Assembly: GCA_964454335.1 (NCBI GenBank)
Contig: CAYVVT010000001.1
Location: 432,083 to 496,082 of the forward strand
Source of the DNA: an uncultured Lentisphaeria bacterium
GTDB lineage: Bacteria; Fidelibacterota; UBA8477; JABMPR01
Direction: 5' to 3'
Length of the DNA: 64,000 bases
In this document: piece after piece, positions 5,674-31,618 of the stretch
Numbering within the stretch: the stretch's first letter is position 1
How the letters are laid out: every line of letters begins with the position of its first letter
The notes under the pieces: model-generated
What the model was told of the DNA's origin: nothing
Database searches by the model: none
The model's input: the letters and a program-made list of their open reading frames with translations, nothing else
Program-made: the position numbers and the translations under genes

Positions 5674-6249
5674 ATGGGACCTTTCAACTGCCCTGAATGC
5701 AAACAATCCCTGGACCAGAAGAAAATGTGGCAATCCCGCTACAAGTGCCCGGAATGCTCCGCAGATCTGAGTGAGTTATTCGTCGAGGAATCCATTCTTA
5801 CACCTCCCTACGATTGGGACAAGGTGGATGCCGGAGAACACTCCATCCTGAAGTCAGAGTTGGAGCAGAAAGAGACAGAGCCGGAGGTAGACACTGGAAT
5901 CATCTCTGCCGTGAAGGCGAAACGTCCGTGGACGGATCCCTGGGTTCTGGGCAGAACCATTCCTGTCGCCCTGCTGATCCTGGCTGTTCTGAATATGCCG
6001 CCCTGGTATTACTATCCTGTTCTACGTGTTGTCGTATCCCTTACAGCAGCGGTGGCAGCCTATATCTCACTGGTCACCGGACTGGTAAGACCCATGATCG
6101 TGTGGGGGGTCCTGGCAATCTTTTACAATCCGATCTCACCCATTTTCATCTTCACCAGGCAGACCTGGGTATTCATCCACCTGGTCTCGGCGATCCTGTT
6201 CATGTTCCTGCCTTACAACGGTTCTTCTGCTAGTCTGAAACGGCAGTAA
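5674..6249 (+). CDS. Hypothetical membrane protein with an N-terminal zinc ribbon (CPEC...CPEC) and 3-4 C-terminal TM helices.
   Basis: Two CxxC pairs at the N-terminus are followed by hydrophobic segments; there is no recognisable family. Confidence 0.4.
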   Translation: MGPFNCPECKQSLDQKKMWQSRYKCPECSADLSELFVEESILTPPYDWDKVDAGEHSILKSELEQKETEPEVDTGIISAVKAKRPWTDPWVLGRTIPVALLILAVLNMPPWYYYPVLRVVVSLTAAVAAYISLVTGLVRPMIVWGVLAIFYNPISPIFIFTRQTWVFIHLVSAILFMFLPYNGSSASLKRQ

Positions 6250-6373
6250 AACACCTCTGTTCCGAGACATTTTACATACAGAAGATTGTTAATATTCTAG
6301 CCGCATTCATCCCCAATGGCAAAATCTGTAGTGATTGCCATTACGCAATTCTCGTTTTTCTAATTCCAGAATC

Positions 6374-6652
6374 ATGCTAGCATCAGCGTATGTGGTGGAA
6401 GTCGCACCGCCTTTGGCGTTGCTTACAGCAGAACGCTCCCTTGCGGAATCGTTCTGCACTGAATGCGTGCTTAACTCGGAACATATGCTAGCATCAGCGT
6501 ATGTGGTGGAAGTCGTAAAATGCCTCTGCTCAGAGGCATTTTACTTACAGAAGAATGCACCCATTTCGGCTGCATTCTTCCCAACAGAAACGAACTGCAA
6601 AGATAACTGGCTTGTTTCGCCGTATATACTAGCCTTGAATTATGTGGTGGAA
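6374..6652 (+). promoter_or_regulatory. Three spaced direct repeats (atgctagcat...tatgtggtggaa) plus a perfect hairpin, upstream of and overlapping the start of the ABC exporter operon.
   Basis: The 31-nt repeat atgctagcatcagcgtatgtggtggaagtcg occurs at 6374 and 6485, and a partial copy lies at 6631-6652 overlapping the ABC gene ATG. The hairpin aaaatgcctctg-ctc-cagaggcatttt is at 6517-6544. Confidence 0.5.
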
Positions 6653-10153: not shown

Positions 10154-10177
10154 GTTCAAACCTCCCAACGCACAAAT

Positions 10178-10590
10178 ATCCAGTTTCAAATTTCAAACGT
10201 CGGGTTGACGAACGTGGAGTGGTCGGCAATCCATACACGTCAGTAAAACCACGACCCGTCTCATCCCTTCTTTTTGAGGGATCAAAAAGAAGCACCCGCC
10301 TTCGCTTGCAGCTCCGGCGTGGCACGAAAAATCCTCCATTTCAGTTTTACCAGGGAAGCATCTGGGGCTGTTAATCAGCTTTGTTGCGGCAGAATTGAAA
10401 CTCGCTCGTTTCACTCCCTCAGACAACAATTCTGCTGCTTGCTCCCTTCGCTGATACAGCCATCCATCTGCTTCCCAAGGAGGTATTCGATGTTGAGTGC
10501 CAGGGCGCTAAGACGAGTGTAGCCCTCAGTCATTGCGAGGAGGGCAGAACTCACGGTTGGAGTTCTGAATGACGTGGCAATCTCCTCAGC
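10178..10590. repeat. Structured intergenic repeat unit, copy R1.
   Basis: It shares the head motif (cagtttcaaatttcaaac), the hairpin cttctttttg...caaaaagaag, the core ...cagggaagcatctggggctgttaatcagc...gcggcagaattgaaactcgctcg...cagacaacaattctgctgc...cttcccaag and the tail ...gttgagtgccagggcgctaag...cagtcattgcgag with the other copies. Confidence 0.8.
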
Positions 10591-10778
10591 AAACCTCGCG
10601 TATGTTGGTTAGTCCAGAAACCCGTCAAACCACCGGACAAGCATCGTTAATTCACCCTCGTTTGCTCATCAGTAGCTGTAATGCTAACTTATAGGCGTTC
10701 CCACTGGAGCTTCCTGCTGTAACCATTCTCACTCATTCTCAAAGCTGTACGATGACAAAGCATTGCAGGGGGATTGAT

Positions 10779-11819: not shown

Positions 11820-11844
11820 AGTACCGATTTTACCAAGAACACAA

Positions 11845-12294
11845 TTTTCCAATTTCAAGTTTCAAACTTTGGATTGACCAACTGGATGTGGTTGGTAATC
11901 CATATTCGATGGTTCGCTGAGGAATTGGGATCCTTCTTCTTTTTGACGCGCCAAAAAGAAACAAAAAGCGTTTTTTTCTCACCTAACCAGGGAAGCATCT
12001 GGGGCTGTTATGCAGCTTAGTCGCGGCAGAATTGAAACTCGCTCGTTTCACTCCCTCAGACAACAATTCTGCTGCTCGCTCCCTTCGCTGATACAGCCAT
12101 CCATCTACTTCCCATGCGGGTATTCGATGTTGAGTGCCAGGGCGCTAAGGTGAGTGTAGCCCTCAGTCATTGCGAGCGCAGCGTGGCAATCTCGCCAGCG
12201 GACGACTTTGACACTTTGCGTTACGAGCAATGATCATCTGCCCAGGTCTGATCTCCAATTAACTCCAGCTCAACACAGTTCGATCAAATCCCGG
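11845..12294. repeat. Structured intergenic repeat unit, copy R2 (a full unit of about 450 bp, in tandem with R3).
   Basis: Over 85% identical to R1, R3 and R5 across head, hairpins, core and tail. Confidence 0.85.
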
Positions 12295-12295
12295 G

Positions 12296-12645
12296 ATTTC
12301 AAATTTCCAGTTTCTAGTTTCGAACTTTGGTTTGACTAACGTGGTATGCTTTGCAGCCCATATTCGATGGTTCGCTGAGGGATTGGGTTCCTTCTTCTTT
12401 TTGACGCGCCAAAAAGAAGCAAAAAGCGCTTTTTCTCACCTAACCAGGGAAGCATCTGGGGCTGTTAATCAGCTTAGTCGCGGCAGAATTGAAACTCGCT
12501 CGTTTCACTCCCTCAGACAACAATTCTGCTGCTCGCTCCCTTCGCTGATACAGCCATCCATCTGCTTCCCAAGCAGGCATTCGTTGTTGAGTGCCAGGGC
12601 ACTAAGACGAGTGTATCTCTCGGTCATTGTAATGCGGCCATAAAT
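12296..12645. repeat. Structured intergenic repeat unit, copy R3 (tandem, with a truncated tail).
   Basis: Near-identical to the R2 core; directly abuts R2. Confidence 0.85.
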
Positions 12646-12923
12646 GCCAGCGGCATATATGGCCAACGAAGCAACCCTCTCCGAATAGAGCTGTTCTATG
12701 GCAATGTTTTAAAAGATCCGACCCGGGAACTGCCATACTTAATGATCGGCCCCTACGCGAACACATCGATCAGACCAAACAAATTTCAATTTCACACATC
12801 CTCATTCTGGAATCCCCTCCCGCCTGCTGCAGGATCCAATCTTCTCCTAAAATCACGTTTTTCCCCAGCCCCCATGCTCTAACTTATTCTAAAGTATTCA
12901 ACTCATTGGTATCGGGGGATAGT

Positions 12924-15900
12924 GTGAAAAAATCCAGACGGTCATTTCCGGTTTCAACGATTTCATTGTCGGCAATTTCAGTGATTTTCCTGCTGGCATT
13001 CGTGACTGCAGGTCATGCGCAGCGTGTGACAGACGTGGAAGCTCTGCAAGCATTCAGTCAGGAGAAGCAGTTGGAATGGCAGGCGGCGCGAGCTGAGATC
13101 GAAGAGTACGCTCGGGCGAACAACATCCCTATCCAACAGATCCTTTTGGACGGCACTACCCTGGAGATCCAACGCCTGGTGAACGGGATCCCCATTTTCT
13201 ATATCACACATAACGCCAATGCGGCCATAACTACCCGTACAGACGAACTCTATCCCGGTGGGGATGCCGGTCTCAGTCTCAGCGGATCCGGATATGACAA
13301 GCTTGGTATCTGGGATGCGGATCAGGTGCGTTCCACACACGATGAGATGACTGGCCGGGTGACCTATGGTGACAGTGAGACCACACTGCATTATCACGCC
13401 ACCCATTGCGCCGGGACCCTCATCGCCAGTGGATCCACCGCCAGCGCCAAGGGTATGGCCTATGCTGCCGATCTCACCTCCTACGACTGGAGTTCGGACA
13501 TCTCGGAGATGTCATCCGCTGCCGCCAATGATCTGGAACTTTCAAATCACTCCTACGGCAGCAGCTCCGGTTGGGTAGGAAGTACCGCCTGGTACGGTGA
13601 TACCGGCGTGGACCAGGACGAATGCTATTACTTCGGCTTCTATAATCAGGATGCCCGGGACTATGATCATATCGCGTACCTGGCACCCTATTACCTTATT
13701 GTGAAATCCGCCGGCAACGACCGCAACGATGACGCTCCCAGCGAAGGAACAGCACACAGCCATAACGGTAGCGGTACCTATACCGACACCCATAACGACG
13801 ACGGACATGACAGCGGGTACGACACGATGCCCTTCGAGGCTGTGGCCAAGAATATTCTCACTGTGGGTGCTGTCTATGATGTCGCCAACTATACCCAGGC
13901 TTCCGATGTGACCATGTCGTCCTTCAGCAACTGGGGCCCGGCCGACGATGGCCGTATCAAGCCGGACCTGGTGGCCAACGGTATCAGCGTTTACTCCTGC
14001 CTGGAAACCGCCAACGATGCCTATGGATCTCTTTCCGGTACTTCCCAGGCCTCACCAAATGCCTGCGGAACTCTGGTCCTGCTGCAGCAGCATTATCAGA
14101 ATACCCATAGCACCAATGTGATGCGTTCAGCCACGCTGAAAGCCCTGGCGATCCACACTGCCGATGAAGCCGGGTCCAATACAGGGCCTGATTATGCCTT
14201 TGGCTGGGGATTGCTGAATGCCGAAGCGGCAGCCGACATCATCAGTGATGACGAGAATTATGGTTCCATTGCAGAATTGAACCTCTCCAGCGGCGAAAGC
14301 TATTCCCGGACCGTTACTGCCACAGGCAGCGATCCACTGAGAGTAACCGTGGTGTGGACCGATCCGCCGGGAACACCGGTATCGGCCTCACTGGATCCCA
14401 CGACGGCCATGCTGGTAAATGACCTGGACCTGCGGATCACCAAAGACGCCAGCACCTACTATCCCTGGAAGCTGGACAGGAGCAATCCAGCCAATGCCGC
14501 CACCAACAGCGCCGAGAATGACATCGATAACGTGGAGCAGGTCTATATTGCCAGTCCATCGAACGCAAGCTACACCATAGTGGTGGATCATGACGGCAGC
14601 CTTACGGGAGATTCACAGGATTTCTCCATCATAGTTTCCGGGCATTCATCCTCTTCCAGCGCCCCTGGTTGCTCTGACGGTCTTATCGGAATCAGTGACG
14701 GTGCTACCGATGTAGCAGTACAAACCGTCCTCCAATGGGAAGAGGTTGAAAGCGCCACGAGCTACGACCTCTATTTCGGTACGGACAATCCGCCCACCAG
14801 CGTGGTGAATGGTAGCAACCAGACCACGACTTCCTACAGCCCCTCACTGGCGTTGAATACGACCTATTACATCAAGATACTTCCAAAGAACACGCACGGG
14901 ACTGCCAGCGGGTGTGCGGTGTGGTCCTTCTCCGTGGGCTCAAAGATCCTGGAGGAGGATTTCGACGACTTCCTGGTGATCGGTACCGATAACAACTGGA
15001 CCAATGGCTCAGGTGACGATTTCGACTGGTCGGTGAATGTGGGCAGCACACCTTCAGGCAGTACAGGACCTTCCGGTGACCACAGCACAGGCTCCGATAC
15101 CTACCTTTTCACCGAATCCTCCGATCCCAACTATCCAGATAAGACCGCCTATCTGCTGAGTCCCAGCTTTGATCTGAGCAGCTCATCCAATCCCACCCTG
15201 GAGTTCTGGTATCACATGTACGGTTCCACCATGGGGGAACTCTATGTCGATGTCTATGCCAACAGCAGCTGGAACAACGCTGTCTGGAGCCTGACGGGCG
15301 ATCAGGGCAATTCCTGGTCTGTGGCGGTGGTGGATCTATCGGCATACAAAGCCTACTCCGATCAGCAGCTTCGGTTTCGGGCAGTGACGGACGGTTTCCG
15401 CAGTGACATGGCCGTCGATGATGTCACCGTCCGCAGTGAGGCATTCTACACCTTTACCGGCGGCAGCACATCGGCGCACACCTTCCCGAACACCGGGGCG
15501 ATCCTGCAGTTCACCTCCGCCAACAGCGGCGATGTCAACATCACGGCCATCAAGAACAATTCTGATCCCGGTGTGAACGGCTCCCTGCCCGAAGGGGTCG
15601 TAAACAGTTCGAGTGAACGTTACTGGGACCTGATCCTCAATTCCGGAAGCGCGGACGGTATTTATGCACTTACTCTGGACCTGGATGGCATGATGGGGAT
15701 CAGTGACTATTCCACCCTGAAGCTGCTCAAACGTGCCAACAGCAGCGGTGCCTGGGCAGTGGCCGGTACCAATGCCTATGCTGGATCCGGAACCTCTGTG
15801 AAATGGACGGGGATCAGCAGTGGTTTCTCCCAATTCGGCATCGGTGGGGCCAGCGATAACAGCCTGCCGGTGGTCCTGACGTCCTTCGCAGCGGAAGCAG

Positions 15901-16475
15901 TGCAGGGAGCGATCATATTGAGCTGGGTCACCGGCAGCGAGATCGAGAACCTGGGCTTCATTCTCGAACGTCGCGAATATCCTGAAGGTGCCTGGATCGA
16001 GATTGCGCATTATCAGGATCAACCGGAGTTGCGAGGGCAGGGGAGTAGCACGGCAGGGTACGCCTATTCCTTCCGTGATGCCGCGATCGTTCCAGGAAAG
16101 AGATACGACTACCGTCTAGCGGCCGTGGATTATCAGGGTAGCAGGGAGTATCAAGGGATGATTGTCACTGGTGTGACCCTGAACGCTGTCCTGCCTACGG
16201 ACTACACCCTGAAACAGAATTACCCGAATCCATTCAATCCCAGTACAGCCATCACATATGACCTGCCGGAAGATGTCAGGATAAGGATTCAGATCTTCGA
16301 TATGAACGGCCGTGAAATTGTCCTGCTTGTCGAAGGCCGGCAACCTGCAGGCTCCTATGATCTGCTCTGGAATGGCCAGGATCATTGGGGAGAATCGGTA
16401 GCACCAGGTGTCTACTTCTGCCACCTCCAAGCCGGTGATTTCTCGCAGACGATCAAGATGGTAGTGCTGAAATAG
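12924..16475 (+). CDS. Subtilisin-like serine protease (peptidase S8) with a MAM domain and a T9SS C-terminal sorting domain.
   Basis: HATHCAGT (His motif) and GTSQASPNACG (Ser motif); MAM-like block ...DDFDWSVNVGS...YLFTESS...LEFWYHMYGSTMGELYVDV; C-terminus NYPNPFNPSTAITYDL...VVLK; signal peptide after the GTG start. Confidence 0.9.
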   Translation: MKKSRRSFPVSTISLSAISVIFLLAFVTAGHAQRVTDVEALQAFSQEKQLEWQAARAEIEEYARANNIPIQQILLDGTTLEIQRLVNGIPIFYITHNANAAITTRTDELYPGGDAGLSLSGSGYDKLGIWDADQVRSTHDEMTGRVTYGDSETTLHYHATHCAGTLIASGSTASAKGMAYAADLTSYDWSSDISEMSSAAANDLELSNHSYGSSSGWVGSTAWYGDTGVDQDECYYFGFYNQDARDYDHIAYLAPYYLIVKSAGNDRNDDAPSEGTAHSHNGSGTYTDTHNDDGHDSGYDTMPFEAVAKNILTVGAVYDVANYTQASDVTMSSFSNWGPADDGRIKPDLVANGISVYSCLETANDAYGSLSGTSQASPNACGTLVLLQQHYQNTHSTNVMRSATLKALAIHTADEAGSNTGPDYAFGWGLLNAEAAADIISDDENYGSIAELNLSSGESYSRTVTATGSDPLRVTVVWTDPPGTPVSASLDPTTAMLVNDLDLRITKDASTYYPWKLDRSNPANAATNSAENDIDNVEQVYIASPSNASYTIVVDHDGSLTGDSQDFSIIVSGHSSSSSAPGCSDGLIGISDGATDVAVQTVLQWEEVESATSYDLYFGTDNPPTSVVNGSNQTTTSYSPSLALNTTYYIKILPKNTHGTASGCAVWSFSVGSKILEEDFDDFLVIGTDNNWTNGSGDDFDWSVNVGSTPSGSTGPSGDHSTGSDTYLFTESSDPNYPDKTAYLLSPSFDLSSSSNPTLEFWYHMYGSTMGELYVDVYANSSWNNAVWSLTGDQGNSWSVAVVDLSAYKAYSDQQLRFRAVTDGFRSDMAVDDVTVRSEAFYTFTGGSTSAHTFPNTGAILQFTSANSGDVNITAIKNNSDPGVNGSLPEGVVNSSSERYWDLILNSGSADGIYALTLDLDGMMGISDYSTLKLLKRANSSGAWAVAGTNAYAGSGTSVKWTGISSGFSQFGIGGASDNSLPVVLTSFAAEAVQGAIILSWVTGSEIENLGFILERREYPEGAWIEIAHYQDQPELRGQGSSTAGYAYSFRDAAIVPGKRYDYRLAAVDYQGSREYQGMIVTGVTLNAVLPTDYTLKQNYPNPFNPSTAITYDLPEDVRIRIQIFDMNGREIVLLVEGRQPAGSYDLLWNGQDHWGESVAPGVYFCHLQAGDFSQTIKMVVLK

Positions 16476-16631
16476 AGTGGAAGTACGCCAGCAAGTAAGC
16501 CAGGTTTATGTTGATCTTTAAATGATACAGAGCCAGGAATTCACATCCAGATCACCTGCGATTTGAATTCTGCTAGATAATCCCTTATCTTCCAGTTCGT
16601 TACGTTGGATTTGAGCTTCGGCAGGGTATTG

Positions 16632-17072
16632 ATGTATAACGGGCTTGGTCACCAGTCTCCCCCCGCTTCCCGGCGCTTCTCGCCGGCCTTTTCCCTCGTG
16701 GAATTGATGATCGTCATCGTGATCATGGGCATTCTCGCGGCTATCGCTATTCCCGTTTACTATGACAATGTCGACCGGGCCATTCTGGCCGAATCCGATG
16801 CAGCTATGGGTTCCATACGTAATTATCTCGTGGTCTACTATGGGACGAACGGTATGTATTCCATTCAGCTATTCGATGCCTATGTCATTGGGAAGAGCTG
16901 GAACGAGATCAAACCCGGTGAACTCAACGGGCAGTTCTTCCGGGACTCGTCCTTCTACTATTACTGCTGGGATGGGATCAATTATTTCCTCATCGCTCAG
17001 AAAGGTCAGCCGAATCCTCTCTGGCGGACGCTGGATCAGAATGGGGATTTCGAGAGTTGGCCCAACCTGTGA
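16632..17072 (+). CDS. Prepilin-type N-terminal cleavage/methylation domain protein (type IV pilin or T2SS pseudopilin-like), paralog 1.
   Basis: AFSLVELMIVIVIMGILAAIAIPVY is a class III signal and pilin helix. Confidence 0.65.
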   Translation: MYNGLGHQSPPASRRFSPAFSLVELMIVIVIMGILAAIAIPVYYDNVDRAILAESDAAMGSIRNYLVVYYGTNGMYSIQLFDAYVIGKSWNEIKPGELNGQFFRDSSFYYYCWDGINYFLIAQKGQPNPLWRTLDQNGDFESWPNL

Positions 17073-17156
17073 ACGCGATTCGCTTGACCGGCGTAGCCCA
17101 AAGGGCGTAGACGGGTGAATCGCTAATCGGTTGGACAACCTGTATTGATTATCAAC

Positions 17157-17337
17157 CCATATTCGATGTTGAGTGCCAGGGCACTAAGACTAGTTTAGCC
17201 CTCAGTCATTGCCAGCACAGCGTGGCAATCTCGCCAACGGACCACTCTGACACTTTGCATTACGAACAATGCCCACCTACCCAGGTCTGATCCAAGAATC
17301 ACTCCTGATCAACACGTTTCGATCAAAGCGCATGTTC
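17157..17337. repeat. Structured repeat, tail fragment R4.
   Basis: It matches the tail of R2 (gttgagtgccagggcactaag...gcgtggcaatctcgcca...gttcgatcaaa). Confidence 0.75.
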
Positions 17338-17675
17338 TCAAATTTCCAGTTTCAAGTTTCCAACATTGGTTTGACCAACTGGAAGTGGTTGGCAATCCAT
17401 ATTCGATGGTTCGCTGAGGAATTGGGATCCTTCTTCTTTTTGACGCGCCTAAAAGAAGCATATAGCGCTTTTTTCTCACCTAACCGGGGAAGCATCTGGG
17501 GCTGTTAATCAGCTTTGTCGCGGCAGAATTAAAACTCGCTCGGCGAAGGTCGCGCCGGAGTTAGAAGAACGAAGCCGGACGGCTCGCTCAGACAGCAATT
17601 CCGCTAGTCACTCACATCTTTGAATCATCCGTATAGATACTTCCCAAGTATGCCGCTATGTTTTGCACCAGGACG
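17338..17675. repeat. Structured repeat unit R5 (head plus core, with a roughly 35-nt insertion expanding the central hairpin).
   Basis: Head caaatttccagtttcaagtttc, hairpin ttcttctttttgacgcgcctaaaagaag, core with an inserted ggcgaaggtcgcgccggagttagaagaacgaagccgg. Confidence 0.8.
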
Positions 17676-20634: not shown

Positions 20635-20955
20635 TCATTGCTCTCTGCCTATCGTTTCAATCATGCGGTTGATGGTCTCAGGCTCGATGGGGGCGAACTG
20701 ATCGATGCGATCATCGATACGCTTGAAGACCGCCATCATCCTGTAGAAGAGGTCGTGGCTGTGTTTCGGTCCCGCCAGGAAATCCAATGCGCCGGCAGTA
20801 ATGGCCACCGGCATGACCAGCACATCCAGTATGGCTTCTGCACCGGACTTCAATAAGAAGATGGCCAGATCACTGAGGAGCCGGGCTCTTCCAACCTTCG
20901 GTAGTCTGATTTCTCCCAATCCCCAGGGCTTCTTCGTCCTTTGATCTGTATTCAT
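20635..20955 (-). CDS. Hypothetical small protein (106 aa), translationally coupled to the upstream amidase gene.
   Basis: Its ATG overlaps the amidase stop (TGATG); no family was recognised. Confidence 0.35.
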   Translation of the reverse strand: MNTDQRTKKPWGLGEIRLPKVGRARLLSDLAIFLLKSGAEAILDVLVMPVAITAGALDFLAGPKHSHDLFYRMMAVFKRIDDRIDQFAPIEPETINRMIETIGREQ

Positions 20956-22592
20956 CAGCTTGCCTCGTATTCCACGGTGTCCCGGAATTGTGGTGCCTGC
21001 CGGTGCCGGCTGGCCTGTTCGTAGGCAAAGGCAACTTTCAGCAACAGTGGTTCTGACCAGGCGGTGCTGAAGAATGATAACCCAACGGGGAGACCGTGAA
21101 CAAAACCCATGGGTACTGTGATGTTTGGATAGCCGGCCCGAGCCGCGGCGGAGGAACTGGCACCCAGGAAGTGATCGCCGTTGATCCAGTCGGTGAACCA
21201 GGCGGGTCCTCCGGTTGGTGCGATGATGAGATCGACCTCGTGTTTCGCCAGGGTGGCATCGATGCCGTCCCTGCCAGCCAGACGTTTTACCTTTTTCAGC
21301 GCCTGCTTGTATTCCTTGCTGCCCAGATCGCCTTTGGCCTGGGACTTGATGAGGATCTCCTGACCGAAATAGGGAAGCTCGGTATCGGCGTTTGCTTCAT
21401 TGAAGGCAATGAGCTGTTCAAGCGTCTTTACCCCGGCTGTTGGTCCTCTTGAAGCGAAATAGATGTTGAGGTCCGCCTTGAACTCGTAAAGCAGAACATC
21501 GTAGGAGGCTGAGCCATAGTCGCCCTTGGTGACGATGTCGGCCTCATCAACGAGTTCGGCACCCTGATCTTTCATCAACGCTACAGCCTCCTCCATCAGA
21601 GCATCGACACCCTCATGATAGCCCATAAGATTGCGGGCGATGCCTATGCGACTGCCTTTGAGACCCTCAGGATCAAGAAAACGCGTGTAATCACTGTGGA
21701 TCCTGTCCTGATGATCCTGAGTGATGGGATCCTGCGGATCAGGTCCTGCCAGAGCGCTGAGGAGGATGGCGCCGTCCCTCACCGTACGAGCCATGGGTCC
21801 CGCGGTGTCCTGGGTGTGGGCGATGGGGATGATACCGCTACGGCTTAGCATTCCCAGGGTCGGTTTGATCCCTACGATACCATTCTGGTGGGAAGGACAG
21901 ACCACCGAGCCGTTGGTCTCTGTTCCAATGGCAGCAGCGCATAAATTGGCTGAAGCTGCAACTCCCGAACCTGAGCTGGATCCGCAGGGATTCCGGTCCA
22001 GGGCGTAGGGATTGTGGGTCTGACCACCCCGGCCACTCCAACCGCTGGTGGATTTCTCAGAGCGGAAATTGGCCCACTCACTCAAATTGGTCTTCCCCAG
22101 CAGCACTGCTCCCGCCGCCCTGAGACGTTCGACGATGTGAGCGTCGTCCGCTGGGCGGGTATCCGTTAAGGCGAGTGATCCAGCCGTGGCGAGCATCTGG
22201 TCGGCTGTATCGATATTGTCCTTGATCATGATGGGAATACCGTGCAGTGGTCCCCGGATCCTACCAGAGGCCCTTTCCTCATCGAGTTTATCGGCGATCT
22301 CCAGTGCCTGTGGATTCACCTCGATGACAGCGTTCAGGGATGGCCCGGAACGATCGACATCTTCGATGCGCTGGAGGTAGGCTTTCGTGATGGATCTGGC
22401 GGTATGTTTACCGCTTTCCATGACCTCACTGAATTGAGCGAATGTCCATTCGTGAAATTCAAACTCGGGTATGGCAGCAGGTTGTTTCTCCCCTGCTCCG
22501 GATGAGCCTTCCGGAGCACAGGTTATCATTCCACCAATCGCCAAGGTAGAGCCGCCCAGGGCGCTGAGTTTGATGAAGTCACGTCGATGCAT
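20955..22592 (-). CDS. Amidase-signature family amidase with a TAT signal peptide.
   Basis: N-terminus MHRRDFIKLSALGG (TAT); amidase signature GGSSSGSGVAASANLCAAAIGTETNGS. Confidence 0.85.
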   Translation of the reverse strand: MHRRDFIKLSALGGSTLAIGGMITCAPEGSSGAGEKQPAAIPEFEFHEWTFAQFSEVMESGKHTARSITKAYLQRIEDVDRSGPSLNAVIEVNPQALEIADKLDEERASGRIRGPLHGIPIMIKDNIDTADQMLATAGSLALTDTRPADDAHIVERLRAAGAVLLGKTNLSEWANFRSEKSTSGWSGRGGQTHNPYALDRNPCGSSSGSGVAASANLCAAAIGTETNGSVVCPSHQNGIVGIKPTLGMLSRSGIIPIAHTQDTAGPMARTVRDGAILLSALAGPDPQDPITQDHQDRIHSDYTRFLDPEGLKGSRIGIARNLMGYHEGVDALMEEAVALMKDQGAELVDEADIVTKGDYGSASYDVLLYEFKADLNIYFASRGPTAGVKTLEQLIAFNEANADTELPYFGQEILIKSQAKGDLGSKEYKQALKKVKRLAGRDGIDATLAKHEVDLIIAPTGGPAWFTDWINGDHFLGASSSAAARAGYPNITVPMGFVHGLPVGLSFFSTAWSEPLLLKVAFAYEQASRHRQAPQFRDTVEYEAS

Positions 22593-22699
22593 GGCATGTC
22601 TCCTTGCGGATGGAGTTTTGATTGGATTTTGGGGGTAACTTAGGCTGAGGTAGGGTGGTTGTCAGGTGTTTGGTTCGGGATAGCCGGATTACGTTTGGT

Positions 22700-22945
22700 G
22701 GTTAGTGACTGCAGCTCCGTTTAACATGTTGTTACTTTTTGAGGGAGCAAAAAGTAACCAAAAACTCCTTTCTTTACGCACATACTGGAAAGCATCTGTC
22801 GTCTGGTATTCAACTTGTTCGCTGTGGAATCGAAACTCGCTCACATGCGTTCGCTCAGACAGTGATTCCACTATTCGCTCACTGCGTTGAACCAGACTGG
22901 ACAGATACTTCCCAAGTAGGTATGCCACGTATCGCACCAGGACAA
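22700..22945. repeat. Structured repeat unit R6, a divergent copy showing compensatory stem changes.
   Basis: Hairpin gttactttttgagggagcaaaaagtaac against cttctttttg...caaaaagaag in other copies; stem gtggaatcg...cagtgattccac against gcagaattg...caattctgc. Confidence 0.75.
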
Positions 22946-22976
22946 GAACAAACAATCCTAAATTCGGAATCCTTGA

Positions 22977-25328
22977 TTATGTGAGCGGCCAGAAGATGGG
23001 GAGCAGGAACAGAGAGATCAGCAGCAGCAGGAGGACCAGGGGAAGGCCCACCTTTGTGTAGTCGGTGAAGCGATATCCACCAAGACCCATGACCAGGAGG
23101 TTGACCGGGTGACCCACGGGACTGAGGAAGGCACTTGAGGCGCCCAGAGCGACAACCATGAGCAGCGCATGAGGCGAGTAGGACATCTCCAGGGCCGTGC
23201 TCAGGGCAATGGGGGCCATGATGACGGCCACCACAGCGGTGGGCATGATCTGGGCTGCCAGGGCGGTGATGATGAAAATACCGGCGATGATGCCGAGTGG
23301 ACCGAGGAATTCGATGGATCCCAGGACGCTATGCGCAATGAGAGCGGTTGCGCCGGACTTCTGCATGGCCAGACCCACGCCCAGCATACTGGCGATGAGA
23401 AAGATTGCCTTCCACTCGATGGCACGATAGAAATCCTCCATTGTGAGGCAGCGCGTGAGAACCATCAAGGCTGCACCCACAGGTGCGGCGATGTAGATGG
23501 GCAGCAGTCCAAACCCTACCGTGGCAAGGACACTCAATTCAATACCGGCGGCAATAGGGGCTTTGGGTTTGTCATAGATCTCTTCCTGCATACCGGTAAG
23601 CACCAGGAAGTCCTGGTCCTCGTGAAGTTCTGCCAGATCCTCCCTGGCCCCATAGACCAGGAGGGCATCCCCGGGTTGCAGGACCATGTCACGCAGCGCT
23701 GTGCGATAAGCCCGATCCTGACGCCAGATGGCCAGTACCGTCAGGCCATATTCTTCACGGAAATCGAGTTCGCCGATGGTTTTTCCCAGTACCGACGTGC
23801 GGGGCGCCAGGATGATCTCGGCGACCCCCACTTCATCAGATTCGAGCCGATCCAGGTCCTCCTCACGCTGGTCTTCCAGAATGAGTTCCTGGAGTCCGGC
23901 CAGAATGTCCAGGTTCTGTGGTTGGCCCAGAACGATGAAGATATCATTCTCCTCGAGAACGAAATCAATTCCCGGTATGAAAATGACCTCATTTCCACGG
24001 GCGATGCCCAGGACATTGATCCCCAGGGCGTCCTTGAGATGGCTTTCACCAAGATTCTTGCCCACCAGGGCAGATCCTTCCGGGATGGCGATCCCCATGA
24101 TCTGCCGGTGCAGCTTGTACTTGAAGGCCACGTCCCGGGGTGAAAGACGCTGGAAGTCAGTGAACTGACCCTCTTCGGCCAGAGCCTCGATCTTGTCATC
24201 GAATCCCATGGCCACCAGGACATCGTCCTCGTGGAGACGGTATTCGCGGAGTTTGGACCATTTGACATGATCCTCACGCTGGATGGCCAGGATGTTCACA
24301 TTGAAATCCCGGCGGAAACCGGCTTCGATGAGGGTGCGTCCCAAAAGGGGTGAGAGTGCTTTTACCTTGATCTCGGCAAATGAGAGTGAGCGTGCGATCA
24401 GATGTTCACTGAGAAGGAAACCGCGTTTCAGCTCCAGGTGTTTCCAATTCCGCAGGGTCTCCAATTGCTCCACCCGGCCTTCCACCAGCAGTTTGTCGCC
24501 TTCCTGCAGTTCGGAATTGGGTCCTGGTGCCAGCATTGACTTCTCACGCCGAATAATAGCAAGAACGTTGAACCCGATGGCTGATCCCAGACGGCTTTCC
24601 GCCAGGTTCTTGCCGGTGAGCGGGGATCCTTCAGGGATGGTAAGTGTCTGCAGCCGAGCCTGGAGCTCATACTGACGTTTCATGATGTCAGCGAGACTGG
24701 TATCACGGTCAACAGGTTTATGTGGCAGCAGACGCTTGCCCAGGGTCACCATGTAAAGGATTCCCAGGCTCAGGACCACCAGGCCAAGCGGGGTAAAGTC
24801 AAAAATATTGTAGGGACGAAACCCGGCATCCTGCAGAGTGCCGCTGATGAGCAGGTTTGGAGCGGTTCCGATGAGGGTCGTCAGGCCTCCCAGCAGAGAA
24901 GCAAAAGCCAGGGGGATCAATAGCCGGGATGGTGAATTCTTGGTGGCATGCGCGATGCTGATGACCACCGGCAGAAGCAGTGCAGCCACACCGATGTTGT
25001 TCATGATCCCTGAGAACAATCCTACAGTGACCATGATAACCACCATGAGGCGGCCTTCATTCTTACCGGCCAGTTTGAGGATCTGTTGTCCTACGATCTG
25101 TGCCACACCGGTTCGCACCAGACCAGCACTGAGAACAAGAACCGCGGCTATAGTCACTACGGCATGATTGCTGAAACCAGCCAGGGCTTCGTCATGGGTG
25201 ATGATCCCGAATACAGCCAGGATCAGCAGGGCACTGAAGGCTACCAGGTCCACCCGCAGCCATTCCGTCACAAAGAAGAGTACCGCTGCTGCAAGCGTTG
25301 CCAGGACGAATATGATAGAGACTGTCAT
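22977..25328 (-). CDS. SLC13/DASS-family permease with four central TrkA-C (RCK_C) domains.
   Basis: N- and C-terminal polytopic membrane halves flank repeated roughly 70-aa TrkA-C-like blocks (e.g. ...GDKLLVEGRVEQLE...). Confidence 0.8.
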   Translation of the reverse strand: MTVSIIFVLATLAAAVLFFVTEWLRVDLVAFSALLILAVFGIITHDEALAGFSNHAVVTIAAVLVLSAGLVRTGVAQIVGQQILKLAGKNEGRLMVVIMVTVGLFSGIMNNIGVAALLLPVVISIAHATKNSPSRLLIPLAFASLLGGLTTLIGTAPNLLISGTLQDAGFRPYNIFDFTPLGLVVLSLGILYMVTLGKRLLPHKPVDRDTSLADIMKRQYELQARLQTLTIPEGSPLTGKNLAESRLGSAIGFNVLAIIRREKSMLAPGPNSELQEGDKLLVEGRVEQLETLRNWKHLELKRGFLLSEHLIARSLSFAEIKVKALSPLLGRTLIEAGFRRDFNVNILAIQREDHVKWSKLREYRLHEDDVLVAMGFDDKIEALAEEGQFTDFQRLSPRDVAFKYKLHRQIMGIAIPEGSALVGKNLGESHLKDALGINVLGIARGNEVIFIPGIDFVLEENDIFIVLGQPQNLDILAGLQELILEDQREEDLDRLESDEVGVAEIILAPRTSVLGKTIGELDFREEYGLTVLAIWRQDRAYRTALRDMVLQPGDALLVYGAREDLAELHEDQDFLVLTGMQEEIYDKPKAPIAAGIELSVLATVGFGLLPIYIAAPVGAALMVLTRCLTMEDFYRAIEWKAIFLIASMLGVGLAMQKSGATALIAHSVLGSIEFLGPLGIIAGIFIITALAAQIMPTAVVAVIMAPIALSTALEMSYSPHALLMVVALGASSAFLSPVGHPVNLLVMGLGGYRFTDYTKVGLPLVLLLLLISLFLLPIFWPLT

Positions 25329-25379
25329 GGTCGATTATGGTCAGTGATCTGTTTGAAGTTACGATGGGGTGGGGGAAGT

Positions 25380-25945
25380 TCAAGGGTTGGCACCGGGGGT
25401 GCAGGATAGTAAACCGGATCAACACCTCAATGTTGTGGTTTGTATATGTATCATTTTCTCCCTTCATTTTGAAGCGGCAAAAAGAAGCAAAAACCGCCTT
25501 CTCAGGGTTAATCCTTTCCAAGCAGGTATTCGTTGCCAAAATCCAGGACGTTCAAGCCTCAATCGAGAAGATTGCCTGAGAATTCCCCAAGCGGGGCTTT
25601 GTTCTGAGGGGTCGACACTTCAGTGTTGTGGTTTGATTATGTATCGGTTAAACCCTTCTTTTTGAAGGATCGAAAAGAAGTTAAAAATCCTTTTGCGCCA
25701 GAGATCGGATTGTGACTGTCACCGTTCATTCCGCCATGAAGCTGAAACTCGCCCTACCGGGCTTCAAACAACAGCTTCATTTCCGCTCCAATTCACGGGA
25801 CAGTCATGCTATCCGCTTTCGATTGCGCTTACCGAGCAGGTTCTCTATGCAAAGCATCAGGACTTATGAACTCCTTTGTCATTTCGAGAAAGCCAGAACT
25901 CCCTGTAGGGATTCTGGATGACGAAGCAACCTGCTAAGTGTCCCA
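25380..25945. repeat. Structured repeat region R7: a duplicated head hairpin, then a core and tail with compensatory substitutions.
   Basis: There are two acacNtcaNtgttgtggtttg...ttcNttttg...aaaagaag sub-units. Stem tgaagctgAAACTCGC...AAACAACAgcttca corresponds to gcagaattgAAACTCGC...CAGACAACAattctgc elsewhere. The tail is homologous to the R1 tail. Confidence 0.7.
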
Positions 25946-26042
25946 CCAAGGTTTCTGCTATTGAACATGATTGGATGCTTATAACCACAATCATCCATCC
26001 ACCACCCTGGCGGGATTCAGTTTTCTATCATACATTTCGTAG

Positions 26043-26474
26043 ATGGACTCAGCTTTTGGTAAGAACCATTCTACGCAATCTGCCTTTTCCCTGGTAGAGC
26101 TGATGATCGTCATCGTGATCATTGGTCTTCTGGCGGCTATCGCGGTACCTGTGTATAACAAGAATGTGGAACACGCCATTCGGGCTGAGGGGGAGGCCGC
26201 ACTGGGATCGATCCGCACGCAGGTACTGGTGTATTATGGTGAACACGGTCACTTTCCAGTGGAAGATCTGTCACGGGTGGTAACCCAGAGCTGGCACAGC
26301 ATCAAAGAGGGCGAACTAGATGGACGCTACTTCTCAGAATCGTCCTATTACTACCAGTGTTTTGACGGTGTCGACTATCTCATCGGTCTGCATCGTGGAG
26401 AAGTCATGGAACTGCACCGCTCGCTGAACCAGGATGGCCAATACGAGAACTGGGACCTTAGTGTGGATGAGTAG
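26043..26474 (+). CDS. Prepilin-type N-terminal cleavage/methylation domain protein, paralog 2.
   Basis: QSAFSLVELMIVIVIIGLLAAIAVPVY; roughly 45% identical to the 16632..17072 product. Confidence 0.65.
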   Translation: MDSAFGKNHSTQSAFSLVELMIVIVIIGLLAAIAVPVYNKNVEHAIRAEGEAALGSIRTQVLVYYGEHGHFPVEDLSRVVTQSWHSIKEGELDGRYFSESSYYYQCFDGVDYLIGLHRGEVMELHRSLNQDGQYENWDLSVDE

Positions 26475-30630: not shown

Positions 30631-31203
30631 TCAACTGGAACCAACATTAAAGATCTCAAGTGGAGGAATTGCATAGCTTTTCAGTTCCCGATCTACGTTT
30701 CTTGATCGCGGATAATACTGATCCAGATTAGACCAGAACACATTGCTGTGATTGGGAACCTCGGTGTGAACCAATTCGTGCAGCAGAACATAATCAATGA
30801 GGTGTGAGGGCAGGATGACAAGGGCGGCATTCAGGCTGATGGTGCCACTGCTGGAGCAGGATGCCCAGCGGCTCGATTGGCGACGAAGAGACAATCGCTT
30901 GTATGAGAATGGCGTTCCCGCGGCGAGGGTCTCCATTCGCATGAATAGTTCCTCACGGATCTCCTCGCGGGATCGTGCCGGCGTCAGCGCAATCCTTTGA
31001 AGTGTATTCTTTTCGATCTGTGCCACAGCGATCAGATGCCTTTCGAGCCAGGTCTGCCTGGATTCCAGGAACTTCTGGATCCTGGACTCGGAGAATCCCC
31101 GGGGGGCATGCACCTCGGCTCCGATGAATGGTTTTACGGTTATTCGAAGCCGGCGCAGCTTTGGTTTGATCAGGATCTTCGGGGTGGTTTTCATAGGCAT
31201 GGA
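30631..31203 (-). CDS. YgjP-like (DUF45/SprT-like) zinc metallohydrolase.
   Basis: HELVHTEVPNHS is an HExxH motif in a YgjP-type context; the start was chosen at MPMKTTPKILIKPKLRRLRITV. Confidence 0.7.
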   Translation of the reverse strand, partial: SMPMKTTPKILIKPKLRRLRITVKPFIGAEVHAPRGFSESRIQKFLESRQTWLERHLIAVAQIEKNTLQRIALTPARSREEIREELFMRMETLAAGTPFSYKRLSLRRQSSRWASCSSSGTISLNAALVILPSHLIDYVLLHELVHTEVPNHSNVFWSNLDQYYPRSRNVDRELKSYAIPPLEIFNVGSS

Positions 31204-31284
31204 GGATAACACCGAATTTTCTGATTGGGGAGAAATTGATTGTACTTCTAAAGTTTGCAGCGAGATCGAGTGGCAATTCAACCA

Positions 31285-31520
31285 TGTGAATCAGTACTTC
31301 TTTTTGATGCGCCAAAAAGAAGCAAAAGGCGCTCTTCTACAATTGACCAGGAAAGCATCTGGTGCAATCAATCAACTCATTCGCGGTAGAATTGAAACTC
31401 ACCCCGGTAGTACCGGGGCTCAGACAACAATTCTGCTTCCCGCTCACTCATTGTTGACGCCCTCCGGCTGCTTCCCAAGCAGGTTTGTTTTGTTGAATGC
31501 CGGGGTGGAGATCCGGGAGG
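31285..31520. repeat. Structured repeat unit R8, a core copy with an alternative central hairpin.
   Basis: cttctttttgatgcgccaaaaagaag, then ...gcggtagaattgaaactcaccccggtagtaccggggctcagacaacaattctgc..., ending cttcccaagcagg. Confidence 0.75.
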
Positions 31521-31618
31521 TCATCCCAAGTAACCCAATGGCGGGATTCAATCTTTGAATTCAAAACGAAAAGGGCCAGCCACCGGCCAGCCCCTCGCAA
31601 CAAAGGAGTTCTTGCGAA

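Follow-up and report, generated by a model that had tools for sequence, protein, structure and literature searches.

A stretch of 64,000 nucleotides from contig CAYVVT010000001.1 (positions 432,083 to 496,082, here called the window and numbered from its first letter) harbors an intergenic repeat in eight plus-strand copies, located between 10.2 and 31.6 kb, which we identified by repeat comparison and nhmmer. A preliminary description of this repeat had proposed that base changes between divergent copies reflect selection on secondary structure. In support of this proposal, we found two-sided changes far beyond those in shuffled and slid controls. We consider it probable that the repeats are small (about 230 to 490 bp), non-coding, and non-autonomous mobile elements of the type known as MITEs (miniature inverted-repeat transposable elements) whose fold is under selection. 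Hallmarks of mobility that had been overlooked, namely terminal inverted repeats, a 9-bp duplication, and presence or absence between strains, were found in a distant homologue.

The copies, designated A to H, lie within 21 kb and measure 230 to 490 bp, and due to insertions and deletions between them no reading frame is conserved. Seven of the eight are full length, the exception being copy F, from which the long hairpin is exactly absent. Copy C (12300 to about 12790) was used as the reference, as all 42 of its consensus pairs are Watson-Crick pairs. Its predicted fold begins with a head hairpin, S1 (12394-12403/12410-12419), and a second helix, S2 (12406-12409/12426-12429), followed by a long hairpin (12447-12570) with an inner stem (12483-12491/12521-12529) enclosing an apical loop (12492-12520).

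The 42-pair nested structure defined on copy C is made up of S1, the inner stem of 9 bp, and four helices from the outer and middle parts of the long hairpin; pairing was evaluated in the seven full copies, with 500 shuffles and slid partners as controls. In a MAFFT alignment, 87.4% of the cells were paired compared to 32 to 53% with slid partners, and two-sided changes were present in 15 pairs compared to 5.7 ± 1.8 after shuffling (0 of 500) and 1 to 7 with slid partners. An alignment fitted with a covariance model (CM) gave 90.1% versus 31 to 55% paired cells, and two-sided changes in 17 pairs versus 5.9 ± 1.8 (0 of 500) and 0 to 6, respectively. With 15 to 17 pairs in seven copies compared to about 6 in the shuffles, the compensations exceed random expectation, an explanation that the preliminary description had considered. 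The sample is small, and since copies A, B, and C are about 90% alike, the seven sequences represent about four or five independent lineages. In the inner stem, 97% of the positions pair and seven of the nine pairs show two-sided changes; six of the nine differ in copy G from those in copies A to C, with pairing still perfect. Internal loops and bulges stay at the same positions across the copies. At the 3′ foot of the long hairpin, an alternative hairpin, CTGCTT-CCC-AAGCAG (12561-12577 in copy C), competes with the outer helix and shows a compensated change of its own, from G-C to A-T, in copies D and E. These results support the view that mutational drift of the repeats has not been neutral with regard to their predicted structure, because pairing outlasts two-sided changes beyond the controls and the loop motif is kept in the homologue from the Rhodothermales.

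The exchanges cited earlier as compensatory were recovered in copies E and G. The head hairpin CTTCTTTTTG/CAAAAAGAAG, as present in copy C, is replaced by GTTACTTTTTG/CAAAAAGTAAC in copy E (22731-22741/22748-22758), and the inner stem GCAGAATTG/CAATTCTGC is replaced by GTGGAATC/GATTCCAC in copy E (22824-22831/22864-22871) and by ATGAAGCTG/CAGCTTCAT in copy G (25736-25744/25772-25780). Copy E (about 22654 to 22955) lies between the minus-strand genes for an amidase (20955-22592) and an SLC13 permease (22977-25328). It was matched by nhmmer with E=2e-54 and by covariance model R1 with 194 bits, and 39 of its 42 consensus pairs are Watson-Crick pairs. Its long hairpin (22787-22912) contains, besides the inner stem, the stems GGAAAGCATCTGTC/GACAGATACTTCC, GTCTGG/CCAGAC, and TTCAAC/GTTGAA, and the outer stem ATCTGTC/GACAGAT described before lies within 22787-22800/22900-22912. 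Copy G (25608-25947), the most divergent full copy, has S1 at 25655-25664/25671-25680 and the further stems TGACTGTC/GACAGTCA (25713-25720/25799-25806) and CCGT/ACGG. In copy H (31273-31563), the head is located at 31297-31322 and the long hairpin at about 31350-31476; the inner stem GTAGAATTG/CAATTCTGC includes one G·T pair, and the apical loop indeed holds a perfect hairpin, CCCCGGTA/TACCGGGG (31402-31409/31411-31418).

Other parts of the earlier account had to be revised. The segment from 25380 to 25945, which had been taken for a single copy, consists of two, F and G. The bases of the apical loop had been reported as constant; this holds true for AAACTC in all seven full copies, whereas the 3′ motif CAGACA is present in six of the seven and reads CAAACA in copy G. 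The loop of copy E (22832-22863) reads AAACTCGC...CTCAGACAG. The insertion of about 35 nt in the apical loop of copy D (17319-17675) is present, but this copy does not exemplify compensation. Having the worst pairing (31 of 42 pairs) and being recombinant, with a 5′ half 92% like copy B and a 3′ half nearest to copy E, it rather serves as an internal control, and its minimum free energy (MFE) fold lacks the long hairpin.

The helix S2 had not been recognized before. It forms between the loop of the head hairpin, which has six bases, and a stretch of 4 to 6 nt just after an A-rich linker that mostly reads CAAAAA. The loop and its partner are GCGC/GCGT in copy B, GCGC/GCGC in copies C and D, GGAG/CTCC in copy E (22744-22747/22765-22768, after the linker CCAAAAA), GCGG/CCGC in copy F, AAGGAT/ATCCTT in copy G (partner at 25687-25692), GCGCC/GGCGC in copy H, and CCGGC/GCCGG in the Rhodothermales homologue (locus L005). 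S2 was thus found in register with six different sequences in copies B to H and L005 (combined permutation p = 2.4e-4 in a permissive test); in copy A, its partner was lost via a replacement of about 30 nt. Hardly any variation is seen in the linker and in the U5/A5 pairs at the top of S1, and the bottom of S1 and the whole of S2 covary. In the head of copy E (22731-22768), both the lower S1 pairs and S2 are unlike those of copies A to C, yet paired.

Together, the predicted helices S1 and S2 have the topology of an H-type pseudoknot. H-type RNA pseudoknots with an A-rich third loop include the preQ1-I aptamer and viral frameshift pseudoknots. The head resembles them in the succession of a hairpin, an A-rich linker, and a 3′ segment pairing with the hairpin loop, as well as in the invariant junction stem (U5/A5) next to covarying remaining pairs. 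It differs from them in that S1 with 10 to 12 bp is long for a crossing loop of 6 to 7 nt and in that no Rfam match was found. Unlike the preQ1-I and frameshift pseudoknots, it has no ligand, coding-frame, or 5′-UTR context, and the opposite strand could equally well form the mirror-image pseudoknot. Two other readings of the head were rejected. An intrinsic terminator, consisting of a GC helix and a T-run, is not in agreement with the absence of the T-run from the GC-rich homologue, and a scan gave no score; a triplex with the T-run as a pyrimidine third strand appears to be excluded by the pseudoknot geometry and by non-conservation in L005.

The homologue was detected with a looser pattern consisting of the head and the loop motif, which led to one genome, an uncultured metagenome-assembled genome (MAG) labeled "Bacteroidetes" that is placed in the Rhodothermales by the methyltransferase flanking L005. 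Against a background of about 68% GC, the element in L005 has the same head with a covarying S1, GTCCCCTTTTTG/CAAAAAGGGGAC, an inner stem CGAATCG/CGATTCG at the equivalent position, and the loop motif AAACTCGCTTCGCTCAGACA. It also shares with the window copies a module of TTCGATG plus a hairpin and the tail AAGCAGGCA. The apical loop motif is kept between Marinimicrobia and Rhodothermales genomes of 53% and about 68% GC, respectively. A strict three-block DNA pattern found nothing in genome contigs, and its sole match in metagenome contigs (L004) was unrelated on inspection and due to chance.

In a strain with a methyltransferase 89% identical to that of L005 (locus L024), the element is bounded by terminal inverted repeats of 19 nt that are 95% complementary (7118-7136/7599-7617, CAATGCCAGTCGCGGGTTG/CAACCCGCGACTGGGATTG); those of L005 comprise 20 nt and are 85% complementary. 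An identical 9-bp sequence, TGTCATGTG, is present on both flanks in L024 and, in a degenerate version, in L005. The inner stem is retained in L024 and the apical loop is deleted. A further strain (L025), whose methyltransferase (P0129) is identical to that of L024, is without the whole segment of about 490 bp, and the element is also absent in four relatives with 70 to 73% identity (L026-L029), including Longibacter salinarum. Terminal inverted repeats, a 9-bp duplication, and presence or absence at the strain level in the homologue are hallmarks of a MITE. The insertion site in the Rhodothermales is flanked by a LexA-methyltransferase operon and a photolyase gene and falls within a series of short degenerate repeats (TGACCCATCACG(C/T)AT and relatives; L025 1300-1410, L024 7040-7110 and 7610-7650) whose unit number varies by strain.

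Traces of such ends are also present in the window. Copy A (10173-10640, an nhmmer match with its head at 10267-10292 and its long hairpin at 10353-10476) carries at both ends, in inverted orientation, a terminal core that matches the core of the terminal repeat of the Rhodothermales homologue, namely GGGTTGACG at 10202-10210 and inverted GTGGTTTGACGGG (CCCGTCAAACCAC) at 10621-10633. Weaker end repeats were found for copies G (possibly at 25608-25628 and 25927-25947), H, and C, and a possible left end of copy E (GGTGGTTGTCAGG, 22654-22666) resembles by eye the inverted end of copy A. The family is modular. Copy F (25416-25549) represents a precise deletion of the hairpin and consists of the upstream module, the head pseudoknot (S1 at 25462-25471/25478-25487), and the tail (AAGCAGG, 25520-25526); only its two ends were matched by nhmmer, and its CM score was 53 bits. 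Copy D is the chimera mentioned above, copy B (11842-12172) stands in tandem with copy C, 458 bp from start to start, and an orphan tail fragment (17148-17211) lies upstream of copy D. The fragment is part of a segmental duplicate, as the junction between copies B and C (12121-12420) recurs upstream of copy D at 17160-17459 as a 300-nt direct repeat with 84% identity. Copies of the repeat also bracket an S8 peptidase gene and a pilin-like gene (12906-17072) as direct repeats in a composite-like arrangement.

If the repeats are MITE-type elements, a transposase encoded elsewhere in the genome would presumably mobilize them, and the window copies would have moved by the same route as the homologue. 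The interior fold kept by selection would have two parts, a 5′ head, in which the loop of a U-rich/A-rich hairpin of 10 to 12 bp pairs with 4 to 6 nt past the A-rich linker, and an imperfect hairpin of about 125 nt with covarying stems and the conserved apical loop GAAACTCGC...CTCAGACA. The predicted pseudoknot, together with the conservation of the unpaired motif and of the predicted internal loops, argues for selection on a folded single strand. This strand would most likely be a transcript, whose fold may affect the processing, stability, or termination of the RNA of the element itself or of messages from neighboring genes, as has been proposed for bcr1, ERIC, and Correia elements; alternatively, the fold may act in DNA that becomes single-stranded while the element is transposed or replicated. 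Between RNA and single-stranded DNA, we lean slightly toward RNA.

Several observations weigh against a MITE-type origin of the window copies. The empty site in L025 is inexact, since the region is built of degenerate short repeats, and 47 nt of these replace the single 9-mer. The terminal repeats of the window copies are short and only suggestive, target-site duplications were not recognizable around these copies, and a search for empty sites found none, as every contig that shares these genes also has the copies. A transposase with matching ends was not found in the retrieved loci, where the terminal motif was confined to the element. Viral contigs searched with two patterns contained neither the element nor the terminal motif, and blastn of whole elements against plasmid records gave no match. 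As the copies differ by up to about 30% and yet pair, they look more like long-lived selected paralogues than the result of a recent transposition burst. The uniform orientation, identical in eight of eight copies whatever the gene direction (about five independent insertions), is not predicted for a cut-and-paste element of the DDE type. With respect to an action as RNA, the consensus pairs on the plus strand include 8 G·T compared to 12 A·C mismatches, and the usual wobble signature of an RNA made from one strand is therefore absent.

A different explanation, which we regard as unlikely, is that the repeats are not mobile but are paralogous chromosomal genes for small RNAs, or cis-regulatory RNAs, which would be expressed from their own plus-strand promoters and act by base pairing or protein binding via the single-stranded apical loop, with the pseudoknot and the long hairpin providing stability. 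A conserved loop motif with covarying stems is a classic signature of functional RNA, divergent copies coexist in one genome in uniform orientation, and the invariant U5/A5 stem top with the A-rich linker resembles RNA pseudoknots with minor-groove triples. Copies E and H sit between minus-strand genes and copies A to D between plus-strand genes, so that co-transcription alone would express different strands at different sites. A sigma-70-like promoter site, TCGACA-17-GATTAT, lies just upstream of copy G (25612-25640), and a similar site, TCAACA-17-GTATAT, was seen by eye in register just upstream of copy F. However, the promoter search found no such site for copies A to E or H, and a terminator was not found after any copy. 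Genes for small RNAs would also not account for terminal inverted repeats, a 9-bp duplication, and strain-level presence or absence in the homologue or for truncated, chimeric, and tandem copies. Furthermore, the "conserved" apical loop is simply deleted in L024, G·U is no commoner than A·C, and no Rfam match was obtained.

A bolder form of the mobile-element explanation, which we consider unlikely, combines both features. The element would be a mobile carrier of an undescribed structured non-coding RNA, composed of the pseudoknot and the hairpin of about 125 nt with its invariant apical loop, which would have spread horizontally between the distant FCB lineages Marinimicrobia and Rhodothermales and act in trans via the loop. 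If true, the carried RNA could be a partner or regulator of the transposase or a regulatory RNA beneficial to the host, and the element would owe its persistence to the fold, which would not be a side effect of an origin as a palindrome.

It is improbable that the repeats are neutral palindromes, whose arms would be kept complementary by mutation, either through intrastrand template switching at quasi-palindromes or through gene conversion between arms or copies, and whose fold would be functionless. In agreement with such an origin, both strands fold with similar energies and z-scores, the MFE of the minus strand being slightly lower in every copy, and no RNA-type mismatch bias is seen; the precise excision in copy F is expected of unstable DNA palindromes, and copy D shows recombination between copies. 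However, template switching does not account for a helix of 4 to 6 bp that joins a hairpin loop to a segment 16 nt downstream and shows covariation in six lineages, and neutral palindromes would explain neither the unpaired apical motif kept between genomes of 53% and about 68% GC nor internal loops and bulges held at the same positions. Very improbable is a folded single-stranded DNA substrate of recombination or transposition, such as an attC-like site, a REP/BIME moved by a REP-associated tyrosine transposase (RAYT), or a palindrome-associated transposable element (PATE) derived from IS200/IS605. Strand recognition at the replication fork would explain why eight of eight copies share one orientation regardless of flanking genes, and the hairpins keep their shape but not their sequence. 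However, a 9-bp duplication combined with terminal inverted repeats is foreign to attC, REP, and IS200/IS605, the conserved bases lie in the apical loop instead of the hairpin base, about 125 nt plus a pseudoknot far exceed the size of a REP, the annotated genes of the window include no integrase or Y1 transposase, and the orientation sample of about five independent insertions is small.

The attC-like reading had been offered in the preliminary description. In attC sites, core sequences RYYYAAC/GTTRRRY form the hairpin base, and the sites follow gene cassettes in arrays beside intI. The repeats are like attC in forming imperfect hairpins with a structure conserved over sequence and a variable center, and attC function is strand-specific. 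Unlike in attC, the hairpin base (GGGAAGCA/TGCTTCCC) varies, the conserved bases are apical, and the element has inverted ends and a duplication of its own; an integrase was absent among the Pfam-annotated genes of the window and its flanks, as was a cassette array, and this reading was rejected. REP/BIME repeats are G+C-rich hairpins of 20 to 40 nt with a conserved 5′ tetranucleotide that occur in hundreds of copies and are associated with a RAYT gene (Y1 transposase). They were rejected as relatives, since the present unit measures 230 to 490 bp, has an A/T-rich head and a hairpin of about 125 nt, and is accompanied by no Y1 transposase in the window. The PATE derived from IS200/IS605 have subterminal hairpins without terminal inverted repeats or target duplication and were rejected due to the terminal inverted repeats and the 9-bp duplication of the homologue.

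Most likely, the nearest known kind is that of the structured MITE-like intergenic repeats bcr1, ERIC, and Correia, with the family itself being new in sequence. In the Bacillus cereus group, the bcr1 repeat (Klevan et al. 2007, in Delihas 2011, PMC3184786) is a transcribed, MITE-like element of about 155 bp with flanking 5-bp direct repeats and two independent stem-loops, in which compensatory changes keep the RNA fold; its genomic distribution is not conserved between strains, and some copies have lost stability (PMC3184786). The present family is likewise a small non-coding intergenic repeat with transposon-like properties and a fold kept by compensatory changes, in which copies D and F have lost stability. 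It differs from bcr1 by the lack of a sequence relation, a size of up to about 490 bp, the 9-bp duplication of the homologue, the pseudoknot-type head, and a single hairpin of about 125 nt with a conserved apical loop. ERIC/IRU and Correia elements (CREE/nemis) are MITEs of Enterobacteriaceae and Neisseria, respectively, with 104 to 157 bp, TA duplications, and an occurrence restricted to a single family or genus; they form RNA hairpins when co-transcribed and lie in either orientation to genes (PMC3184786). In common with them, the present family is intergenic and consists of mostly imperfect palindromes with terminal inverted repeats and a strain-variable presence; its members likewise have either orientation relative to genes and would form RNA hairpins if co-transcribed. 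Distinct from them are the size, the 9-bp duplication, the pseudoknot domain, and the occurrence in two distant lineages of the Fibrobacteres-Chlorobi-Bacteroidetes (FCB) group, Marinimicrobia and Rhodothermales.

Outside the region occupied by the copies, nhmmer and CM searches found no copy in the other 42 kb of the window, nor was one present in 10 kb to the right (L013) and about 7 kb to the left (L017) from the same organism. The SLC13 permease next to copy E is 100% identical to proteins of metagenome contigs; its nearest named homologues, 59 to 64% identical, belong to Candidatus Marinimicrobia, and another match is 68% identical. Type IX secretion tails in neighboring genes are in agreement with the FCB group, and the host is an uncultured marine bacterium of the Marinimicrobia. 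The permease neighborhood contained no element and showed little synteny in seven contigs from relatives within the Marinimicrobia (61 to 68% protein identity). A search of the whole window against Rfam 15 gave no match at the gathering level, and permissive searches with copies A to C, E, and L005 yielded chance-level matches only (E >= 0.3), with scores far below gathering. In the literature on repeats of Marinimicrobia or Salinibacter, we found nothing relevant.

Open reading frames (ORFs) of 79 to 119 codons cross the copies at 10274-10522, 12332-12643, 17269-17508, 25337-25579, and 31199-31558, and the last three are annotated as genes in public contigs. Their translations had no homologue in the protein database, and since they share peptide words only via the repeated DNA, these ORFs are spurious annotations.

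Further repeated elements were noticed in and around the copies. In copies B and C, a module located just before the head (ATGGTTCGCTGAGGGATTG) shows 79% complementarity to the conserved 3′ portion of the apical loop (CACTCCCTCAGACAACAAT), with the sites located at 12367-12385 and 12506-12524 in copy C and at 11909-11927 and 12049-12067 in copy B; in copy C, the upstream module recurs inverted at 12751-12769. In copy G, the upstream sequence TGTTGTGGTTTGA could pair with the variant loop TCAAACAACA. These pairings may represent a long-range helix, which was not seen in copies E and H. Copies A, B, C, and G each have on their right side (10530-10590, 12165-12200, 12625-12680, and 25875-25925, respectively) a module of the form GTCATTGCGAG-(variable perfect hairpin or nothing)-GACG(T/A)(G/A)GCAATC. 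The hairpin is GGCAGAACTC/GAGTTCTGAA in copy A, CCAGAACTCCCT/AGGGATTCTGG in copy G, and GCGGCCATA.ATGCC/GGCATATATGGCC in copy C, and copy B has none; this module looks like a nested repeat with a variable stem of its own. Small hairpins also flank copy H at 31275-31292 and 31545-31561.

Arrays of the 7-nt unit AATTTCAAGTTTCAAA stand at the left edge of copies A to D (10175-10197, 11851-11866, 12302-12324, and 17341-17363). Inverted arrays of the same heptamer (50855-50870 on the minus strand, 51396-51418 on the plus strand) flank a minus-strand gene of 108 amino acids (50965-51291) whose product matches the Pfam family 23S_rRNA_IVP, a four-helix-bundle protein, with E=1.6e-23. The heptamer array with the 23S_rRNA_IVP gene may represent a small mobile cassette of its own or else a site shared as a target or for binding. 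An N-terminal methylation motif resembling that of type IV pilins (PF07963) is present in two small paralogous proteins (16605-17072 and 26043-26474), whose DNA is 72% identical over 158 nt. The gene of each adjoins both a repeat copy and a large gene encoding a type IX secretion tail, with copy D downstream of the first and copies F and G upstream of the second. Unrelated to the repeat family is an internal duplication in the intergenic region 6249-6642, with two occurrences of ATGCTAGCATCAGCGTATGTGGTGGAAGTCG and, about 270 nt apart, a pair of similar terminator-like hairpins (..CCTCTG(T/C)TC(C/A)GAG(A/G)CATTTTAC.TACAGAAGA..).

The family accounts for several spurious ORF calls and for long intergenic regions, and genome annotation should mask it or model it as a repeat family. 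It extends the short list of mobile repeats from bacteria with a selected fold by a structured repeat that is novel in sequence, supported by covariation, and derived from two poorly studied lineages, Marinimicrobia and Rhodothermales. A head helix with predicted pseudoknot topology and a loop motif conserved across lineages are unusual for MITEs and provide handles for testing an action as RNA.

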